Notes: a model not told the origin generated them from the letters alone. Counted from the first letter of the stretch, positions 58,974 through 64,000 are shown. The stretch is DNA of 64,000 nt from Chloroflexota bacterium (GCA_012719135.1 JAAYAW010000079.1:9723-73722); one strand, 5' to 3'. Translations and numbers: made by a program.

Positions 58974-59540
58974 ATGGCGAATAGCAGAACTGCCGCAGTT
59001 TTTACGGTGATACTCATCCTGCTGGGTCTGATACTGCCGTCGGCAGCCTCTGCAGCCCCGGCCCGCGCGGCCGAATGGACCTATGTGACCGGCGCCCGGC
59101 TAGGCCTCCGGATGCACAGTGAACCGAGCCTGCAAGCTGACAGCACGCTCGTCCTCTACGACGGTGAGGACGTACGTGTGGAAGGCGAGGTCACCTGGTC
59201 CGAAGGGCTCTGGTGGCGTGAGGTGCGGGTAGAGCGCCGCACTGGAGAGTACCGCGGCTGGGTCGCGGCGGCGTACCTGGCAAACCATGAGGATGCGGAG
59301 CCGGAGGATGACCAAGAGCCGGGCTCCTTCTACGCGGTTGTACCGGCAGCAGGTCTGCGACTTCGTGCGGCGCCCGGGCTCGGGTCGGCTGTGCTCCATA
59401 TCGTGCCCAGGGGAGCGCGCTTGCAGGCGGCCGAAGAGGCAACTCGCTCTGCAGATGGGCTGGTCTGGCGTGCGATCTCTCTGGGAGAGACCGTCGTCTG
59501 GGCCGCCGATGCGCATCTGGTGATCGACGCCGCTGAGTGA
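58974..59540 (+). CDS. Secreted protein with two bacterial SH3 domains
   Basis: Signal peptide; LRMHSEPSL...GWVAAAYL and GLRLRAAPGL...WAADAHL. Confidence 0.8.
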   Translation: MANSRTAAVFTVILILLGLILPSAASAAPARAAEWTYVTGARLGLRMHSEPSLQADSTLVLYDGEDVRVEGEVTWSEGLWWREVRVERRTGEYRGWVAAAYLANHEDAEPEDDQEPGSFYAVVPAAGLRLRAAPGLGSAVLHIVPRGARLQAAEEATRSADGLVWRAISLGETVVWAADAHLVIDAAE

Positions 59541-59672
59541 GAGATAGTGTAGCTCGATGCGGGCCGCAGCCTCCGGGTTGCGGCCCTTGTTGTTGGCACG
59601 GGCGTATGTGAGAGGCGCCTTGGTGCGTTACCCCAGCGCGCGTATAATCCCTCGTTGTAGAGTGAGCGATGC

Positions 59673-60008
59673 ATGGCCGAAGATCGTGGACGCTCAAGTC
59701 GCATGGGGATACACGGCATGGATAACCAGTTACAGGGGCTGCGGCGGTGGGCCGGCCGACGAGCGATGCCCCGGCTGTACACAGAGCTGGCCCTCCATCT
59801 GGCCGGCGAGGGATACGAGTTGGAGCTGGAGGGCGAGGTTCTCTCGATATTTGGGCTGCGCAGGCCCAAGGGACCACTCGGACGCCTGCGCAGAGCCAGA
59901 CGAGAGTGTCTACTGCGTCTGGTCAGGCAGGATGATGGCGTCTCGATCCCCGAAGATGCGGCTGATCCCTCGTTCGTCGCCGAGCTTTTAGAGCGGCTGC
60001 GCGTTTGA
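59673..60008 (+). CDS. Small hypothetical protein
   Basis: TATAAT at about 59644; protein-like composition from MDNQL (59718); co-directional with the kinase gene. Confidence 0.55.
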   Translation: MAEDRGRSSRMGIHGMDNQLQGLRRWAGRRAMPRLYTELALHLAGEGYELELEGEVLSIFGLRRPKGPLGRLRRARRECLLRLVRQDDGVSIPEDAADPSFVAELLERLRV

Positions 60009-60066
60009 TCGCGGGTGAGCGCTGTTATCTGATTGGTTCTGCCTCAGATCTCGGGAAGAGAAGGAC

Positions 60067-62022
60067 ATGGCAACGACACTTTCCACTGGATCGCCTCAGC
60101 TGGATGACCTCATCGAGGAGCTGCAGCCGCAGGACAACGTCGTGTTCTTCACCGAGGACCGCGACGACTATGTCCCCTTTGTCAGGACGCTGGCCCGGCA
60201 TGTGGCCGAGATCCGTAGACGACTCGTCTATGTGCGTGGGGATGGATCGCTGGATGATATCGTTGCGCGGCATCCGTCGCCGGTCACTCTGGACGTCCAC
60301 GCCACGGCCTGGGAGGGGCTGCTCGAGAGCATAGAGGCGATCGGTGGCGACGCCTACTATGTGTTCGAGTCACTCTCAGTCCTCGAGGCTCTCGCTGGCG
60401 ATGAGGCGCATCTTCGCGATCTCTTTCTCACACTCTGCCCGAGGCTCTTCCAGCTTCGCTCCGTGGCCTACTGGGACCTGGCCCAGCACCGGTTCGCGGC
60501 CAGCACGGTTGCGGCCATCCGCGATTGCACTCAGGTCTTTATCCGGGTGGAGCGAAACCAAGGCAATGGGTGGGTGGTTACTCCTCTGAAGGTCTGGGGA
60601 CGCTACTCCGATGCGATGTTCAAGCCGCACTGGGCGCAGCTCTCCTCCGAGGGCCTGCTCGTCTCGCCTTTGAGCGCTGACGCGGACCGGGACGGCTCCT
60701 ATGTGGCGGCCCTGGCTGACAAGAACCGCGAGCTGGCGGAGGTTCGCGACATACTAAGTCGACGTAACGACGAACTGAGCCAGCGCAACGCCCAGCTCGC
60801 CGCGCTCAATGCGCGAGTGGCTGAGCAGAGTCATCTCTATGAGTCGCTCTCCGGTAACCTCGAGCACCTCACCTCGCTTCTCCGTGCAGGATGGGAGATC
60901 GGTGGGACCCTGGTGCGCGAGCAGGTCTACCAGGCCGTGCTGCTCGCCTGTACGCGTCTCTTTCCGGGCTGTGGCGCGAGAGTATACCTCCCACTGACGG
61001 AGGGAGGGCCGGTCGACCTCTACAGCTCAGATCCGGCAGGCACCATCGCCCAGATCGCGACAACGGATGTGGTCACCAAAGGACGCTCTCTCGTACTGGA
61101 TTCCGAGGCGAGCGTATCGGCCCGGCTACTGCTGCCTGACAGCGGAGCCGGGGGCAGCGTAGCGCTCGCCCCTCTGATCGTCCGCGGGCGCAGGATCGGC
61201 ACGATCGAGGTCTATGCCGACGACGAGAGACTGGATGATCATGAGCGCCGCCTGTTGTTGACCTATCTCGCGTCCGAGGCCAGCATCGCTCTCGATAACG
61301 CCGATCTGTATCAAGAGACCGATCTTCAGCGTGAGCAACTGCGCACCTTTGTCACGGATGTAATCCGTAACGACGAGAGGGAGAGCCGGCAACTGGCGCT
61401 GGATTTGCACGACGGGCTGGTGCAGATGATCGTAGGATCCTACCAACACCTCCAGGCTGCCCAGGCTTGGAGAGGCCGCGATGCGCATGTGGAGGAGGCG
61501 GAACTCGTCAAGGGCGTTCAGATCCTGCGAGATGCGATTGTCGAGGCGCGCCGGCTGATTGCGCAGTTGCGGCCCGCCGGTTTGGATGACTTTGGACTGG
61601 AGCAGGCGTTAAGAGTCTATCTTGGGGAGGCGCGCAACCTGTCAGCCTGGGAGGTCAACCTCACAGTGCATGGGGCGCTCGAGGGGCTGTCGCCCGAGGT
61701 CGAGGCCTCTCTGTTCCGCATCGTGCAGGAGGCGACACATAACGCACTGCGTTATGCACAGGCCGAGCGTCTGGATGTGAGCCTCGAGGCGCGGGAGCAG
61801 GAGTTGGTCCTCTCCATTGTGGACTCCGGCCGTGGTTTTGAACCAGGAACGGTGCGTTCCCAGCCAGAGAAGGGGTTGCACGTCGGTCTGGTGGGCATTC
61901 GAGAACGCGCGCGCATGCTCGGAGGCAGTTGTGAGATCACCAGCTCGCCAGGCGCCGGTACACGCCTGGTGGTTCGGATACCGTGGACCATCAACTCCAT
62001 GTCGGGAGAGGAGCAGGCATGA
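60067..62022 (+). CDS. Soluble HisKA_3 histidine kinase with an N-terminal Walker-less RecA/KaiC-like domain, coiled coil and GAF domain
   Basis: LALDLHDGLVQ H-box, RIVQEATHNALRYA N-box, DSGRGF and GLVGIRERA; N-terminus STGSPQLDDL...DNVVF. Confidence 0.9.
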   Translation: MATTLSTGSPQLDDLIEELQPQDNVVFFTEDRDDYVPFVRTLARHVAEIRRRLVYVRGDGSLDDIVARHPSPVTLDVHATAWEGLLESIEAIGGDAYYVFESLSVLEALAGDEAHLRDLFLTLCPRLFQLRSVAYWDLAQHRFAASTVAAIRDCTQVFIRVERNQGNGWVVTPLKVWGRYSDAMFKPHWAQLSSEGLLVSPLSADADRDGSYVAALADKNRELAEVRDILSRRNDELSQRNAQLAALNARVAEQSHLYESLSGNLEHLTSLLRAGWEIGGTLVREQVYQAVLLACTRLFPGCGARVYLPLTEGGPVDLYSSDPAGTIAQIATTDVVTKGRSLVLDSEASVSARLLLPDSGAGGSVALAPLIVRGRRIGTIEVYADDERLDDHERRLLLTYLASEASIALDNADLYQETDLQREQLRTFVTDVIRNDERESRQLALDLHDGLVQMIVGSYQHLQAAQAWRGRDAHVEEAELVKGVQILRDAIVEARRLIAQLRPAGLDDFGLEQALRVYLGEARNLSAWEVNLTVHGALEGLSPEVEASLFRIVQEATHNALRYAQAERLDVSLEAREQELVLSIVDSGRGFEPGTVRSQPEKGLHVGLVGIRERARMLGGSCEITSSPGAGTRLVVRIPWTINSMSGEEQA

Positions 62023-62669
62023 TTCGGATCATGCTCGTCGATGACCAGGCAATCGTCCGGGAGGGGCTCAGTTCCATGCTGGGCGTGGAGGACGACATCA
62101 GCATCGCCGGGCAAGCGGGGAGCGGCAAGGAAGCCCTGCGCCTGCTGCCCATGATAGAGCCCGATATCGTCCTGATGGACGTCCGCATGCCCGACATGGA
62201 CGGCCTGGCGACGCTGGAGAATCTCAAGGCCCTCTATCCGGCCCTCAGTGTGATCATGGTGACTCTCTACGATGATCCGGACTATTTGTATCGTGCGGTG
62301 TCGGCCGGCGCGGCCGGCTACATACTCAAGGATGCGAGCCGGGCGGAGTTGGTGAGCGCGGTTCGCACCGTGGCTGCCGGCGGAGCGATCATCTCCCCGG
62401 GTATGTTGCGCGATCTTCTAGAGCGCATTTCCACGATGATGGAGGCTTCCTCGAGCCGGCCTTGCTCCTCCGATCTTGGGCTGACGCCGCGGGAGATCGA
62501 GGTGCTTGGCCTGTTGGCGGAAGGGCTCACGAATCAGGAAATCGCAGAGAGGCTTGTCGTCAGCCCCACTACGGTCAAGACACACGTTCAAAACATTCTT
62601 CAGAAGATGGGCGTCTCAGATCGCACACAGGCGGCGGTCTACGCCGTACGATGCGGCCTCATCAACTAG
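62019..62669 (+). CDS. NarL/LuxR family response regulator
   Basis: VDDQAIVREG, LMDVRMP, GYILKD and LTPREIEVL...TVKTHV; ATGA overlap with the kinase. Confidence 0.95.
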   Translation: MIRIMLVDDQAIVREGLSSMLGVEDDISIAGQAGSGKEALRLLPMIEPDIVLMDVRMPDMDGLATLENLKALYPALSVIMVTLYDDPDYLYRAVSAGAAGYILKDASRAELVSAVRTVAAGGAIISPGMLRDLLERISTMMEASSSRPCSSDLGLTPREIEVLGLLAEGLTNQEIAERLVVSPTTVKTHVQNILQKMGVSDRTQAAVYAVRCGLIN

Positions 62670-62693
62670 AGCCGCCGTCCTTCTCCCCGCAGA

Positions 62694-62711
62694 ATCCTCC
62701 ATCCGGAGGAT
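62694..62711. promoter_or_regulatory. Inverted repeat, candidate NarL-type regulator site (or weak terminator)
   Basis: ATCCTCC-N4-GGAGGAT upstream of a TGgTACCAT extended -10 at about 62765-62773. Confidence 0.4.
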
Positions 62712-62944
62712 GCTCCGCCGGGCCGAATGATCTGCCCGGCGGATAGAATCTCCCAGAGCCAGCTGGTACCATCACGATGATGTCCGGTGTTGCACCGGCG
62801 CATGTGCGGTCTGCCCAGGCCGGCATGTGCAACAGTGCTGTTGACTACCCCCCACGGCCGAGGGTTCGCCACCGATGGCACAACCTGTCGGTCGCCGTTA
62901 TCCCGTCCCGCCTGATACCAAGTTGGCTCACGAGAGGAGACCCC

Positions 62945-64000
62945 ATGTCCAACCTGCAGCGCCCCAACGCGAATGACGCCTCACAGACGACCAATCGCTC
63001 TCGAGATGTGGTTCCTTGCTCGGGCATCTGTTCGCGCTGCGTGGACGGGTGCACCGGCAACTGCGAGATCTTCAAGTCCACCTTTCGCGGTAGAGAAGTG
63101 CTCTATCCCGGTCCGTTTGGCACCGTAACGGCCGGTGGAGACAAGGACTATCCGGTGGACTTTTCGCACTTTAACATCATGGGCTACGCGTTGGGCGCCG
63201 ACGGACTGCCCGAAGGCGTGCAGGGTGGGCCGGATAACACGCTGTTCACAATGGTCAACACGGAGACGGTGATCGGCAATAAGCATACGGAACGCTTGCG
63301 CATGCCGATCATCAGCGGCGCTCTTGGTTCGACAGAGATCGCACGCGCCAACTGGGAGCATTTCGCCGCCGGTGCGGCCATCTCGGGGGTAGTGCTGACC
63401 TGTGGGGAGAACGTTGCGGGCATCGATCCGGGTCTCAAGCTCGATGCCAGCGGCAAGATCGTCGATTCGCCCGAGCTGAGAAGAAGGGTGGAAACTTATA
63501 GACGCTGGTATGATGGATATGGTGATATCCACATCCAGATGAACGTGGAGGATACCGCTTTTGGCGTGGCCGAGTATGCTATCGGCCAGTTGGGCGTCGA
63601 GACCATCGAGCTCAAGTGGGGTCAGGGCGCCAAGTGCATCGGTGGTGAGATCAAGGTTAACGACCTCGATCGGGCGCTGGAACTGCAGCGCCGAGGGTAC
63701 CTCGTCACTCCCGATCCCTCCAACGAGGCTGTTCAGAAGGCCTACCAGGACGGTGCGCTGAAGCAGTTCGAGCGGCACTCGCGTCTGGGCTTTGTCGATC
63801 GGGAGGGCTTTGCCCGCCAGGTCGAGTACCTTCGCAGCCTGGGAGCCAAGCGCGTGACGCTCAAGACGGGCGCCTATCCCATGCGCGAACTCGCCATGGC
63901 TCTCCGCTGGTCCTCGGATATGGGCGTGGACCTGCTCACGATCGATGGCGCACCAGGTGGGACCGGAATGAGCCCCTGGAGGATGATGGTGGAGTGGGGG
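62945..64000 (+). CDS. FMN-binding glutamate synthase family protein (stand-alone, Cys-rich N-terminus), runs off the right edge
   Basis: Not in the ORF track. Manual translation after the GAGGAG RBS gives MSNLQRPNAN...CSGICSRCVDGCTGNCE...GALGSTEIAR...IELKWGQGAK...LKTGAY...DGAPGGTGMSP. Confidence 0.88.
   Translation, partial: MSNLQRPNANDASQTTNRSRDVVPCSGICSRCVDGCTGNCEIFKSTFRGREVLYPGPFGTVTAGGDKDYPVDFSHFNIMGYALGADGLPEGVQGGPDNTLFTMVNTETVIGNKHTERLRMPIISGALGSTEIARANWEHFAAGAAISGVVLTCGENVAGIDPGLKLDASGKIVDSPELRRRVETYRRWYDGYGDIHIQMNVEDTAFGVAEYAIGQLGVETIELKWGQGAKCIGGEIKVNDLDRALELQRRGYLVTPDPSNEAVQKAYQDGALKQFERHSRLGFVDREGFARQVEYLRSLGAKRVTLKTGAYPMRELAMALRWSSDMGVDLLTIDGAPGGTGMSPWRMMVEWG

Follow-up and report, generated by a model that had tools for sequence, protein, structure and literature searches.

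What signal is read by a cytoplasmic histidine kinase that begins with an unnamed domain, and which gene does it control? The question is raised by the last part of a 64,000-nucleotide stretch of Chloroflexota DNA (GCA_012719135.1 JAAYAW010000079.1:9723-73722, hereafter the window), where four + strand genes run from a hairpin to the window's end: a small open reading frame (ORF) encoding a 96-amino acid (aa) protein, the kinase gene, a response regulator gene, and a glutamate-synthase-like (glt-like) gene. A preliminary description of this DNA had proposed a two-component system for nitrogen or glutamate status with a RecA/KaiC-like sensor domain, here called the N-domain. We consider it reasonably probable that a three-gene module, consisting of the 96-aa protein, the kinase and the NarL-type regulator, controls the glt-like gene according to nitrogen/glutamate status. 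As that description had anticipated, the N-domain stays beside genes for glutamate enzymes, and it does so in three architectures: a nitrogen gene is present in 57 of 77 loci where the domain is fused to a PPDK_N body, and a glt-like gene in 17 of 18 kinase loci and in 17 of 26 loci where the domain is joined to helix-turn-helix (HTH) and cupin domains.

The kinase and its N-terminal domain

The features of the locus, in window coordinates, are the following.

59561..59586, + strand: terminator-like hairpin 3' of an SH3-domain gene; 11-pair stem with 9 GC pairs, T-rich tail
59718..60008, + strand: 96-aa gene of no known family, 5' of the kinase gene (tblastn)
60067..62022, + strand: cytoplasmic sensor histidine kinase, 651 aa
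60067..60666, + strand: N-domain, kinase aa 1-200, RecA/KaiC fold without Walker A
60703..60906, + strand: coiled-coil linker, kinase aa 213-280; weak coiled-coil-family matches, charged heptad-like sequence
60919..61296, + strand: GAF domain, kinase aa 285-410; PF01590, E 1.3e-7, and PF13185, E 7.1e-7
61387..61584, + strand: HisKA_3 dimerisation/phosphoacceptor domain, kinase aa 441-506, with His448; E 2.3e-7, LHDG at 447-450
61702..61986, + strand: HATPase_c catalytic domain, kinase aa 546-640; E 1.4e-14, N box 558-564, G boxes 586-591 and 607-615
62019..62669, + strand: NarL-family response regulator, REC and GerE domains; PF00072, E 3.3e-28, and PF00196, E 1.7e-22; D8, D9, and D54
62694..62711, no strand: palindrome ATCCTCC-ATCC-GGAGGAT, candidate operator for the regulator; 15 of 18 loci have it, allowing one mismatch
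62715..62742, no strand: GC-rich perfect 9-bp inverted repeat, CCGCCGGGC N10 GCCCGGCGG, read from the sequence
62945..64000, + strand, window ends inside: glt-like gene, encoding a flavin mononucleotide (FMN) glutamate-synthase-family protein, 531 aa on the contig

The hairpin at 59561..59586 is likely to be the upstream limit of the transcription unit, although it is weak evidence, a terminator-type scan having found two sites where 1.2 were expected. In agreement with the preliminary description, the kinase has no transmembrane segment (the top 19-residue Kyte-Doolittle mean is 1.46), its gene is translationally coupled to that of the regulator, whose ATG overlaps the kinase TGA by 4 bp (GCATGATTC), and the NarL-type regulator is followed, from 62945, by a gene of the FMN glutamate synthase family (PF01645). 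Between the N-domain and the HisKA_3 core, Pfam places a coiled coil and a GAF domain that were absent from that description, as were the 96-aa gene, the palindrome, and the HTH-cupin architecture. Kinase and regulator together have the make-up of a NarL-class two-component system, with HisKA_3 and HATPase_c domains and a conserved His in the one, and a REC acidic pocket and GerE HTH in the other; the kinase has kept its catalytic His and its N and G boxes, and the receiver its aspartates. None of the NCBIfam equivalog cut-offs is reached, the best scores being 124 bits for MctS (cut-off 700) and 174.9 bits for MadR (cut-off 300). The pair resembles NarX/NarL-class systems in its transmitter and regulator domains, its heptamer inverted-repeat type of site, and its overlapping genes; it differs in that the window's kinase is cytoplasmic and has another input.

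The motifs by which the N-domain had been recognised are all present, i.e. STGSPQLDDL (aa 6-15), DNVVF (aa 23-27), YYVFESLSVL (aa 97-106), FLTLCPRLFQLRSVAYW (aa 120-136), TQVFIRV (aa 155-161), and PLKVWGRYSDAMFKPH (aa 173-188). An AlphaFold model of aa 1-200, built from a 9-sequence alignment, has a predicted local distance difference test (pLDDT) score of 91.6 and a predicted template modelling (pTM) score of 0.90. As assessed by Foldseek, the model matches KaiC (7s65_B, E 1.2e-12, TMq 0.78). With VIA-align, it superposes on PH0284 (2dr3) at Z 19.4 and a root-mean-square deviation of 2.8, with 190 of 200 residues aligned, and on Elp456 (4a8j_D), KaiC C1 (5yz8), and Sso2452 (2w0m) at Z 19.2, 19.0, and 18.9, respectively. 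A chain of the Escherichia coli Bcs cellulose-secretion complex (9fnn_E), which we take to be BcsE, gives Z 16.0. The only matches of a PDB sequence search, to 'surface anchored protein' repeats (E 1.8e-4 in total and 0.39 for the top stretch), were rejected as chance, given that the fold search points elsewhere and much more strongly.

The claim that this is a RecA/KaiC-like domain without Walker A stands, considering the Z of 19.4 to PH0284 and the absence of any GxxxxGK[ST] from aa 1-220. A profile of 38 family members aligns weakly with PH0284 (E 0.042) and KaiC (E 0.046), in agreement with the fold match. In these profile alignments, the P-loop GGPGTGKT of PH0284 lies opposite TEDRDDYV of the window, and the Walker-B strand of KaiC lies opposite YYVFESLSVL. 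The Glu pair of PH0284 (ALEE) falls opposite the non-acidic or unconserved positions R57-G58-D59-G60, in what is a weak alignment (E 0.042). An N-terminal 'TG-P-LD' motif and the Walker-B-like strand are common to the N-domain and KaiC-like ATPases, and none of the 38 aligned members retains the glycine-rich loop or its lysine. Because the fold matches, the P-loop lies opposite TEDRDDYV, and no GxxxxGK[ST] is present, the N-domain is, as modelled, a KaiC-type fold that lost its nucleotide loop. Its fold and family are near certain.

Could such a domain bind nucleotide without a P-loop, so that the system would report energy charge or ATP/ADP rather than nitrogen status? The RecA/KaiC fold would suit this, as would the Walker-B-like hhhhD/E that is kept (YYVFE) and the basic residues K175 and R179, which at least 90% of 38 sequences share. 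However, the loss of the glycine-rich loop and lysine extends to every one of the 38 members, and the gene neighbourhoods described below are specific to nitrogen assimilation, not to energy metabolism. We consider nucleotide sensing quite improbable.

The domain had been called uncharacterised, and it is unnamed in the databases: aa 1-200 have no Pfam match at E<=10, and all NCBIfam matches of the kinase lie C-terminal to them. Scanning 38 family members at E<=1 yielded no significant Pfam model and no match to DUF835 (PF05763). Sub-threshold grazes were to PAXNEB in five members (best E 0.011), MEDS in three (0.029), DUF7090 in two (0.0092), and KaiC in one (0.011). In the case of DUF7090 (PF23365), one member (P0087) scores 19.9 bits against a cut-off of 27, and the PF06745 gathering score is not reached, the window's domain having no match at E<=10. 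MEDS (PF14417, gathering score 29.8 bits) had been singled out beforehand as the characterised family to which the domain might belong. It is excluded: hhalign against an alignment of 14 genuine MEDS domains gives 5.2% over 30 columns, the best E being the 0.029 above. The residues conserved in that alignment are H2, Y7, R103, W110, E125, Y143, and H160. MEDS is present in 60 of 201 genomes of the window's phylum, a tally that includes three genomes flagged as unpublished (G173, G038, and G145), and the MEDS model finds no match in the window's genome. To judge by the title of the paper describing it, MEDS is reportedly predicted to sense hydrocarbon derivatives. It is like the N-domain in being a KaiC-superfamily domain without ATPase function that serves as input of histidine kinases and other signalling proteins, and unlike it in its conserved motifs, with no significant sequence or profile similarity between the two.

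In the ESM Atlas, the N-domain lies nearest to unnamed clusters and then to archaeal KaiC, 'RAD55', DUF7504, and DUF7090 clusters. KaiC and KaiC-like ATPases (PF06745; 2dr3, 2w0m, and 5yz8) have the same fold over the whole 200 aa (Z 18.9-19.4), but the N-domain has no Walker A and occurs once, fused to outputs, rather than as a free-standing or duplicated ATPase. Elp4/5/6 (PAXNEB, PF05625), the BcsE N-domain, DUF835, and DUF7090 also have a RecA/KaiC fold without canonical P-loop; the biology of Elp4/5/6, BcsE, and DUF835 is unrelated (tRNA modification, cellulose secretion, and archaeal response regulators). Inactivated KaiC-type input domains are already a known kind. Galperin et al. 2018 (PMC5847659) use 'iKaiC' for an inactivated KaiC-like ATPase domain and place MEDS and DUF835 there. 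With its KaiC-like fold, lost ATPase motifs, and fusion to signal-transduction domains, the N-domain answers to iKaiC, which is a description and not a sequence family. In the open-access literature searched, we found no description of the N-domain family, of its nitrogen link, or of its PPDK_N and HTH-cupin fusions.

A family with many outputs

A word-indexed protein search restricted to kinase residues 1-200 returned 34 proteins, namely 27 kinases of 612-691 aa (the window's included) and seven proteins of 862-897 aa. The latter, which match over 92-94% of the 200 aa with 30-37% identity (E 2.4e-10 to 2.7e-20), bear out a link drawn in the preliminary description: the domain heads proteins with PF01326 as their only Pfam domain, encoded beside glutamate dehydrogenase (GDH). 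We presume this PPDK_N-type long form to be a 'PEP/pyruvate-binding domain protein', a label derived from that description and from PF01326; one database source labels it 'pyruvate, water dikinase'.

A profile search across 1.84 billion representatives, clustered at 50% identity, yielded 1162 clusters at E<=1e-3, 657 at E<=1e-10, and 189 at E<=1e-30. The best 150 clusters comprise 65 with a PPDK_N-type body, six with a kinase core, and 79 with neither, which are mostly shorter than 300 aa and would be genes cut by contig ends. The domain is mobile and wired to different outputs, as had been suggested, with fusions to PPDK_N, kinases, GGDEF, ANTAR, HD, and HTH-cupin. Indeed, Pfam analysis of 22 representatives shows PAS-GAF-HisKA kinases, GAF-PAS hybrid kinases with receiver domains, PAS-GGDEF-EAL, GAF-GGDEF, GAF-ANTAR, PilJ-HAMP-6xGAF-HD, PilJ-HAMP-PAS, PAS-DUF835, and 3xGAF proteins, and one SLH-domain protein. 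The third main architecture, in which the N-domain precedes HTH_3 (XRE) and Cupin_2 in a protein of ~435 aa, is abundant in a second phylum. The N-domain is N-terminal in all proteins examined but one. That one (P0066, 1484 aa) has a PPDK_N-type body, an N-domain at 633-819, and a second PPDK_N-type body, and is probably two adjacent long-form genes read as one.

In a maximum-likelihood tree of 149 N-domains, for which PPDK_N rows were held to 45 and fragments and exact duplicates were dropped, clades follow architecture. GAF-HisKA_3 kinases, with the window among them, form a clade of 53 rows (support 97), HTH-cupin proteins one of 26 rows (support 100), and PPDK_N proteins one of 54 rows (support 100); a mixed signalling clade and a PAS clade have support of 90 and 84, respectively. 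The kinase label requires at least eight changes on this tree. Seven rows of the long-form clade (P0040, P0043, P0049, P0056, P0074, P0120, and P0094) are 270-460 aa long and lack a part homologous to the PPDK_N body; they may represent an additional architecture or come from truncated genes. P0094, inside this clade, carries an SLH domain.

The window's 2.64-Mb genome has one N-domain copy. The domain was found in 3 of 401 sampled genomes of the window's phylum and 10 of 401 of its class, and the kinase form in 7 of 15 other genomes of its family. Scanning species-representative genomes for the pattern of the PPDK_N-type alignment turned up at least 585 stretches that encode such a domain. 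By record titles, long-form carriers include Dehalococcoidia, Syntrophales and other Desulfobacterota, Methanosarcinaceae, Methanoperedens, Methanococcoides, Omnitrophota, Planctomycetota, Verrucomicrobiota, Acidobacteriota, Margulisiibacteriota, Armatimonadota, and a Blautia. Of 301 genomes sampled from the phylum to which Desulfoferrobacter suflitae belongs, 107 have the domain, with matches at 46 places in frames of 813-1194 aa and ~70 shorter ones, mostly of 430-480 aa.

Glutamate genes beside the domain

For the PPDK_N type, we analysed the loci of the best 80 of the at least 585 stretches, with the N-domain gene callable in 77. The 791 ORFs of these loci were clustered without prior labels, and the commonest clusters were then named by Pfam. 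At least one nitrogen gene is present in 57 of 77 loci, a core one in 54, and one within two genes on either side in 51, the nitrogen label falling on 134 of 685 neighbour genes. The commonest neighbour families of any kind, counted per 77 loci, are GDH (32), a generic histidine-kinase cluster (20), NrpR (18), the glt-like family of the window (16, of which 11 directly downstream), Fer4-GltB (11), GltD-like (10), HisF (9), glutamine synthetase (8), Amt (7), CarA and CarB (6 and 5), and Class-I GATase (5). GDH is the adjacent gene 22 times, on the same strand in 19 of those. These locus counts overstate independence because loci are related; among the kinase loci described below, at least L024 and L135 are the same sequence. 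The fraction of nitrogen genes falls with distance, being 35, 29, 18, 12, 15, and 5% at offsets of 1, 2, 3, 4, 5, and at least 6 genes. This gradient is an internal control for post hoc labels and for genomes that are not independent.

In the kinase type, a glt-like gene lies within three genes of the kinase in 17 of 18 loci with enough flank, i.e. the window, 5 of 6 genome loci, and all 11 metagenome loci with flank (L105, L107, L110, L114, L116, L119, L121, L124, L126, L130, and L135); eleven other metagenome kinase loci stop before this can be assessed. The order small ORF, kinase, regulator, glt-like gene is kept in L016, L017, and L019, which belong to the window's family. L018 is cut. 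An opposite-strand GDH gene is inserted before the glt-like gene in L023 and L024, and GDH is present in these two and in L124, L126, L127, and L135. In L020, from another family, the order is AlaDH, GatB, GDH, glt-like gene, and N-domain-GAF gene. For the HTH-cupin type, 26 loci were examined (six chosen first and the next 20 by E value): a glt-like gene is within three genes in 17 and adjacent, often divergently, in 10, and a core nitrogen gene is within three genes in 19.

Inherited synteny or chance might in principle produce such a pattern, with the kinase answering an unrelated signal. In the window's family the whole region is indeed syntenic, including unrelated EF-P, methyltransferase, and GH5-like genes. 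The association nevertheless recurs in three architectures, in varied orders and orientations, and in many phyla including archaea, and it shows the distance gradient just described. We find this explanation hardly credible.

Other nitrogen regulators occur near the domain. NrpR-family regulators are known from methanogens; NrpR senses 2-oxoglutarate. Such regulators (PF01995 and HTH) stand beside bacterial long-form genes, often with HisF/HisH and GDH, for example at L005 6723-9796 and L006 12421-15488, and in the 18 of 77 loci counted above (among L025-L104). Carriers of both NrpR and the long form include Dehalococcoidia, Syntrophales, Omnitrophota, Margulisiibacteriota, and Saganbacteria. 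A GAF-kinase/sigma-54 activator pair similar to Geobacter GnfL/GnfM is often found near the HTH-cupin regulators (L186-L211). Such pairs, like NrpR genes, are frequent neighbours of N-domain genes. NtrB/NtrC-PII, NrpR, and GnfL/GnfM (PMC2995071) are likewise regulators of GDH and nitrogen-assimilation genes. In contrast to NtrBC/PII and to GnfL/GnfM, the window's system has another sensor domain and a NarL-type, not a sigma-54, output.

A 96-aa gene precedes the kinase gene in ~30 kinase-type loci, with 27-60% identity and a shared start Met, and tblastn finds it in none of the PPDK_N-type loci. Its product has no Pfam or NCBIfam match. It is modelled with a pLDDT of 84.5 and a predicted alpha-alpha-beta4-alpha fold, for which Foldseek gives no match at E<=0.001. 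The best Z scores, 5.9 to KA1 of Chk1 and 5.4 to the AMPK alpha C-terminal domain, are too weak to name the fold. A predicted complex with the N-domain scores 0.28, against a mark of 0.32, which speaks neither for nor against contact between the two. We regard the 96-aa protein as a probable third member of the system.

GAF domains are binders of small molecules (2-oxoglutarate in the case of NifA), and the GAF domain of the kinase might be the metabolite sensor. The N-domain would then be a scaffold, either for oligomerisation or for the docking of a partner such as the 96-aa protein, the glt-like enzyme, or GDH, in the manner of KaiC-type hubs. Consistent with this, most signalling architectures have a GAF or PAS domain after the N-domain, the 96-aa gene keeps strictly to the kinase type, and PMC5847659 cites KaiC-family proteins as proposed signalling hubs in archaea. 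Conversely, the 96-aa gene is absent from PPDK_N-type loci, and the PPDK_N and HTH-cupin forms, which have no GAF or PAS domain by Pfam, keep the same neighbourhoods. The N-domain is therefore the common factor, and we hold a GAF sensor on an N-domain scaffold to be unlikely.

The candidate operator and the probable control of the glt-like gene

The glt-like protein matches PF01645 with 51 bits (gathering score 20.4), over profile positions 186-309 of 369 only. PF01645 is found in 100% of the members of its Atlas clusters, which are auto-named 'FMN-binding glutamate synthase family protein'. Its sequence (L004 3668-5263) is 77-88% identical within the window's family and, over the full length, 52-68% identical to the proteins encoded beside PPDK_N-type genes of other phyla. 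The N terminus is Cys-rich (C-x3-C-x2-C-x3-C-x3-C), and the protein has no NCBIfam model and no solved relative by sequence. Since the genome has a canonical Fer4-GltB elsewhere, the glt-like protein is likely, from its sequence, to be an enzyme distinct from canonical GltB. This genome (99% complete, 2.64 Mb) encodes a strong Fer4-GltB, a third weak PF01645 protein, GltD, two glutamine synthetases, and CarAB; GlnA, CarB, CarA, and Fer4-GltB form a nitrogen cluster at 42-55 kb of contig C55. Neither PII (PF00543) nor Amt (PF00909) was found in the assembly, absence from a draft not being proof, and tblastn, the only search made for it, did not find NrpR. The lack of PII and Amt matches bears only in part on the independence from NtrBC that the preliminary description had put forward. 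The stretch's DNA occurs in runs labelled bioreactor metagenome; eight further runs, all from 2016, hold at least half of its words and may represent one campaign. Past the window's end lie a GH5-like gene and a 1017-aa gene (L004 5336-9824, - strand), with a common C-terminal part of ~350 aa. This pair is syntenic in the window's genus and also occurs in L023 and L024.

The regulator and glt-like genes are 275 bp apart. The commonest shared words in the 320 bp 5' of glt-like starts form the palindrome ATCCTCC-N4-GGAGGAT, which occurs once, with at most one mismatch and 186-252 bp 5' of the glt-like ATG, in 15 of 18 loci. These are all the loci ordered kinase, regulator, (GDH), glt-like gene. 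The three loci without it, L020, L124, and L126, have the order GDH, glt-like gene, kinase, and their N-domains belong to a different clade. The half-sites are invariant, except that L019 and L121 carry the variant ATCCCCC...GGAGGAT, whereas the spacer varies (ATCC, GTTC, ATTC, ATTT, ATAT, AAAT, and GAAT). The palindrome is the best-conserved block of the intergenic region, and in loci with a GDH gene inserted behind the regulator gene it keeps its place in the glt-like/GDH region. The site at 62694-62711 lies inside the interval 62670-62945 that the preliminary description had named for binding of the regulator, and has no other exact copy in the 2.64-Mb genome. Allowing one mismatch, there are three genomic sites, against 0-1 in five shuffles, and the palindrome is found neither in 1.18 Mb of long-form loci nor upstream of the kinase operon. 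Five loci have an extended -10-like TGTGCTATAGT beginning ~21 nt 3' of the palindrome; as a -10 element, it would put the palindrome centre near -42 and leave a leader of ~190 nt.

Might the palindrome instead be an RNA hairpin (terminator, attenuator, or ribosome-related) in a transcript reading through from the regulator gene? In the window it starts 24 nt after the regulator stop codon, a 7-bp stem with CCUCC/GGAGG inside is possible, and a second GC-rich hairpin follows. Nevertheless, the stem is invariant and not covarying while the loop varies, the variant in L019 and L121 would break a pair, there is no T-tract, and Rfam has no match (59400-63100, E<=1). Moreover, where the opposite-strand GDH gene is inserted, the site lies in the divergent GDH/glt-like region and not after the regulator. 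We give the RNA hairpin a slim chance.

Other elements of this region are recorded here in their own right. The inverted repeat at 62715-62742, directly 3' of the palindrome, has no T-tract and its sequence is not conserved in relatives. The glt-like leader has no global structure (alifold energy -1.8; per-sequence z from +0.4 to -1.7). A small leader hairpin is found at ~62825-62880 of the window and at -111 to -144 from the ATG in L019, L114, L116, L119, and L130, with an apparent compensatory change (GGCCAC-N7-GTGGCC versus GACCAC-N7-GTGGTC). In the window's clade it reads GCAAC-AGTGCT-GTTG, and a C-rich block follows. It is conceivable that this hairpin is an antitermination element, because ANTAR-type proteins occur in the N-domain family and beside glt-like genes (L191).

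Taken together, control of the glt-like gene by the system is likely. We infer, one step further, the role of the N-domain as sensor, its ligand, the binding of the palindrome by the regulator, and the sign of the regulation. The N-domain, alone or with the GAF domain, would read a metabolite of the 2-oxoglutarate/glutamate/glutamine node, because the domain is common to the three architectures and the glutamate node to their neighbourhoods. The signal would pass via the coiled coil and GAF domain to the HisKA_3 core and then to the regulator, which, once phosphorylated, would bind as a dimer at ATCCTCC-N4-GGAGGAT upstream of the glt-like gene. The divergent GDH gene of some relatives may be served by this region as well.

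Several observations weigh against control of the glt-like gene by nitrogen or glutamate status. All functional claims are drawn from gene neighbourhood, the nitrogen families were named after being seen to be frequent, and many loci are related. Twenty of the 77 PPDK_N-type loci have no labelled nitrogen gene, and 7 of the 26 HTH-cupin loci have no core nitrogen gene within three genes. Kinase-type L021 has a CTP synthase gene in place of the glt-like gene and lacks the palindrome, and the sole ANTAR-type locus seen (L022) adjoins genes for multihaem cytochromes, not glutamate genes. In the window's genome, the only GDH candidate is a 30.7-bit partial ELFV_dehydrog match, which is not convincing. 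The palindrome is ~250 bp from the ATG and the window's own promoter was not found, a sigma-70 consensus scan of 59400-63000 giving no promoter-like site. The palindrome may have a role in RNA because it resembles a Shine-Dalgarno/anti-Shine-Dalgarno sequence. Finally, the actual sensor could be the GAF domain, which the kinase and many family members possess.

Explanations of nitrogen sensing in bacteria and archaea centre on PII, NtrBC, GlnR/TnrA, and NrpR. As a tentative extension, offered with some doubt, the N-domain may be the receptor of an undescribed, PII-free nitrogen-status system that reads the 2-oxoglutarate/glutamate/glutamine node. It would be plugged into kinases, one-component regulators, second-messenger enzymes, antiterminators, and, most commonly, a PPDK_N ATP-grasp enzyme that would act on or with GDH and the glt-like enzyme. 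If true, nitrogen control would gain a new branch, with representatives in Dehalococcoidia, syntrophs, sulfate reducers, Planctomycetota, Omnitrophota, and Methanosarcinales.

What the locus brings to light is a large unnamed domain family tied to GDH, NrpR, glutamine synthetase, ammonium transporters, and an uncharacterised glutamate-synthase-like enzyme, a nitrogen link that spans many anaerobic phyla and methanogen relatives. A soluble domain of 200 aa for ligand studies and an 18-bp candidate operator for footprinting offer experimental handles, and among cultured carriers of related forms Desulfoferrobacter suflitae and Methanococcoides sp. are open to genetics. The glt-like enzyme and the PPDK_N fusion protein stand out as unstudied players in anaerobic nitrogen metabolism. 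As for the window's organism, it may rely on this module, because its 99%-complete assembly shows neither PII nor Amt.

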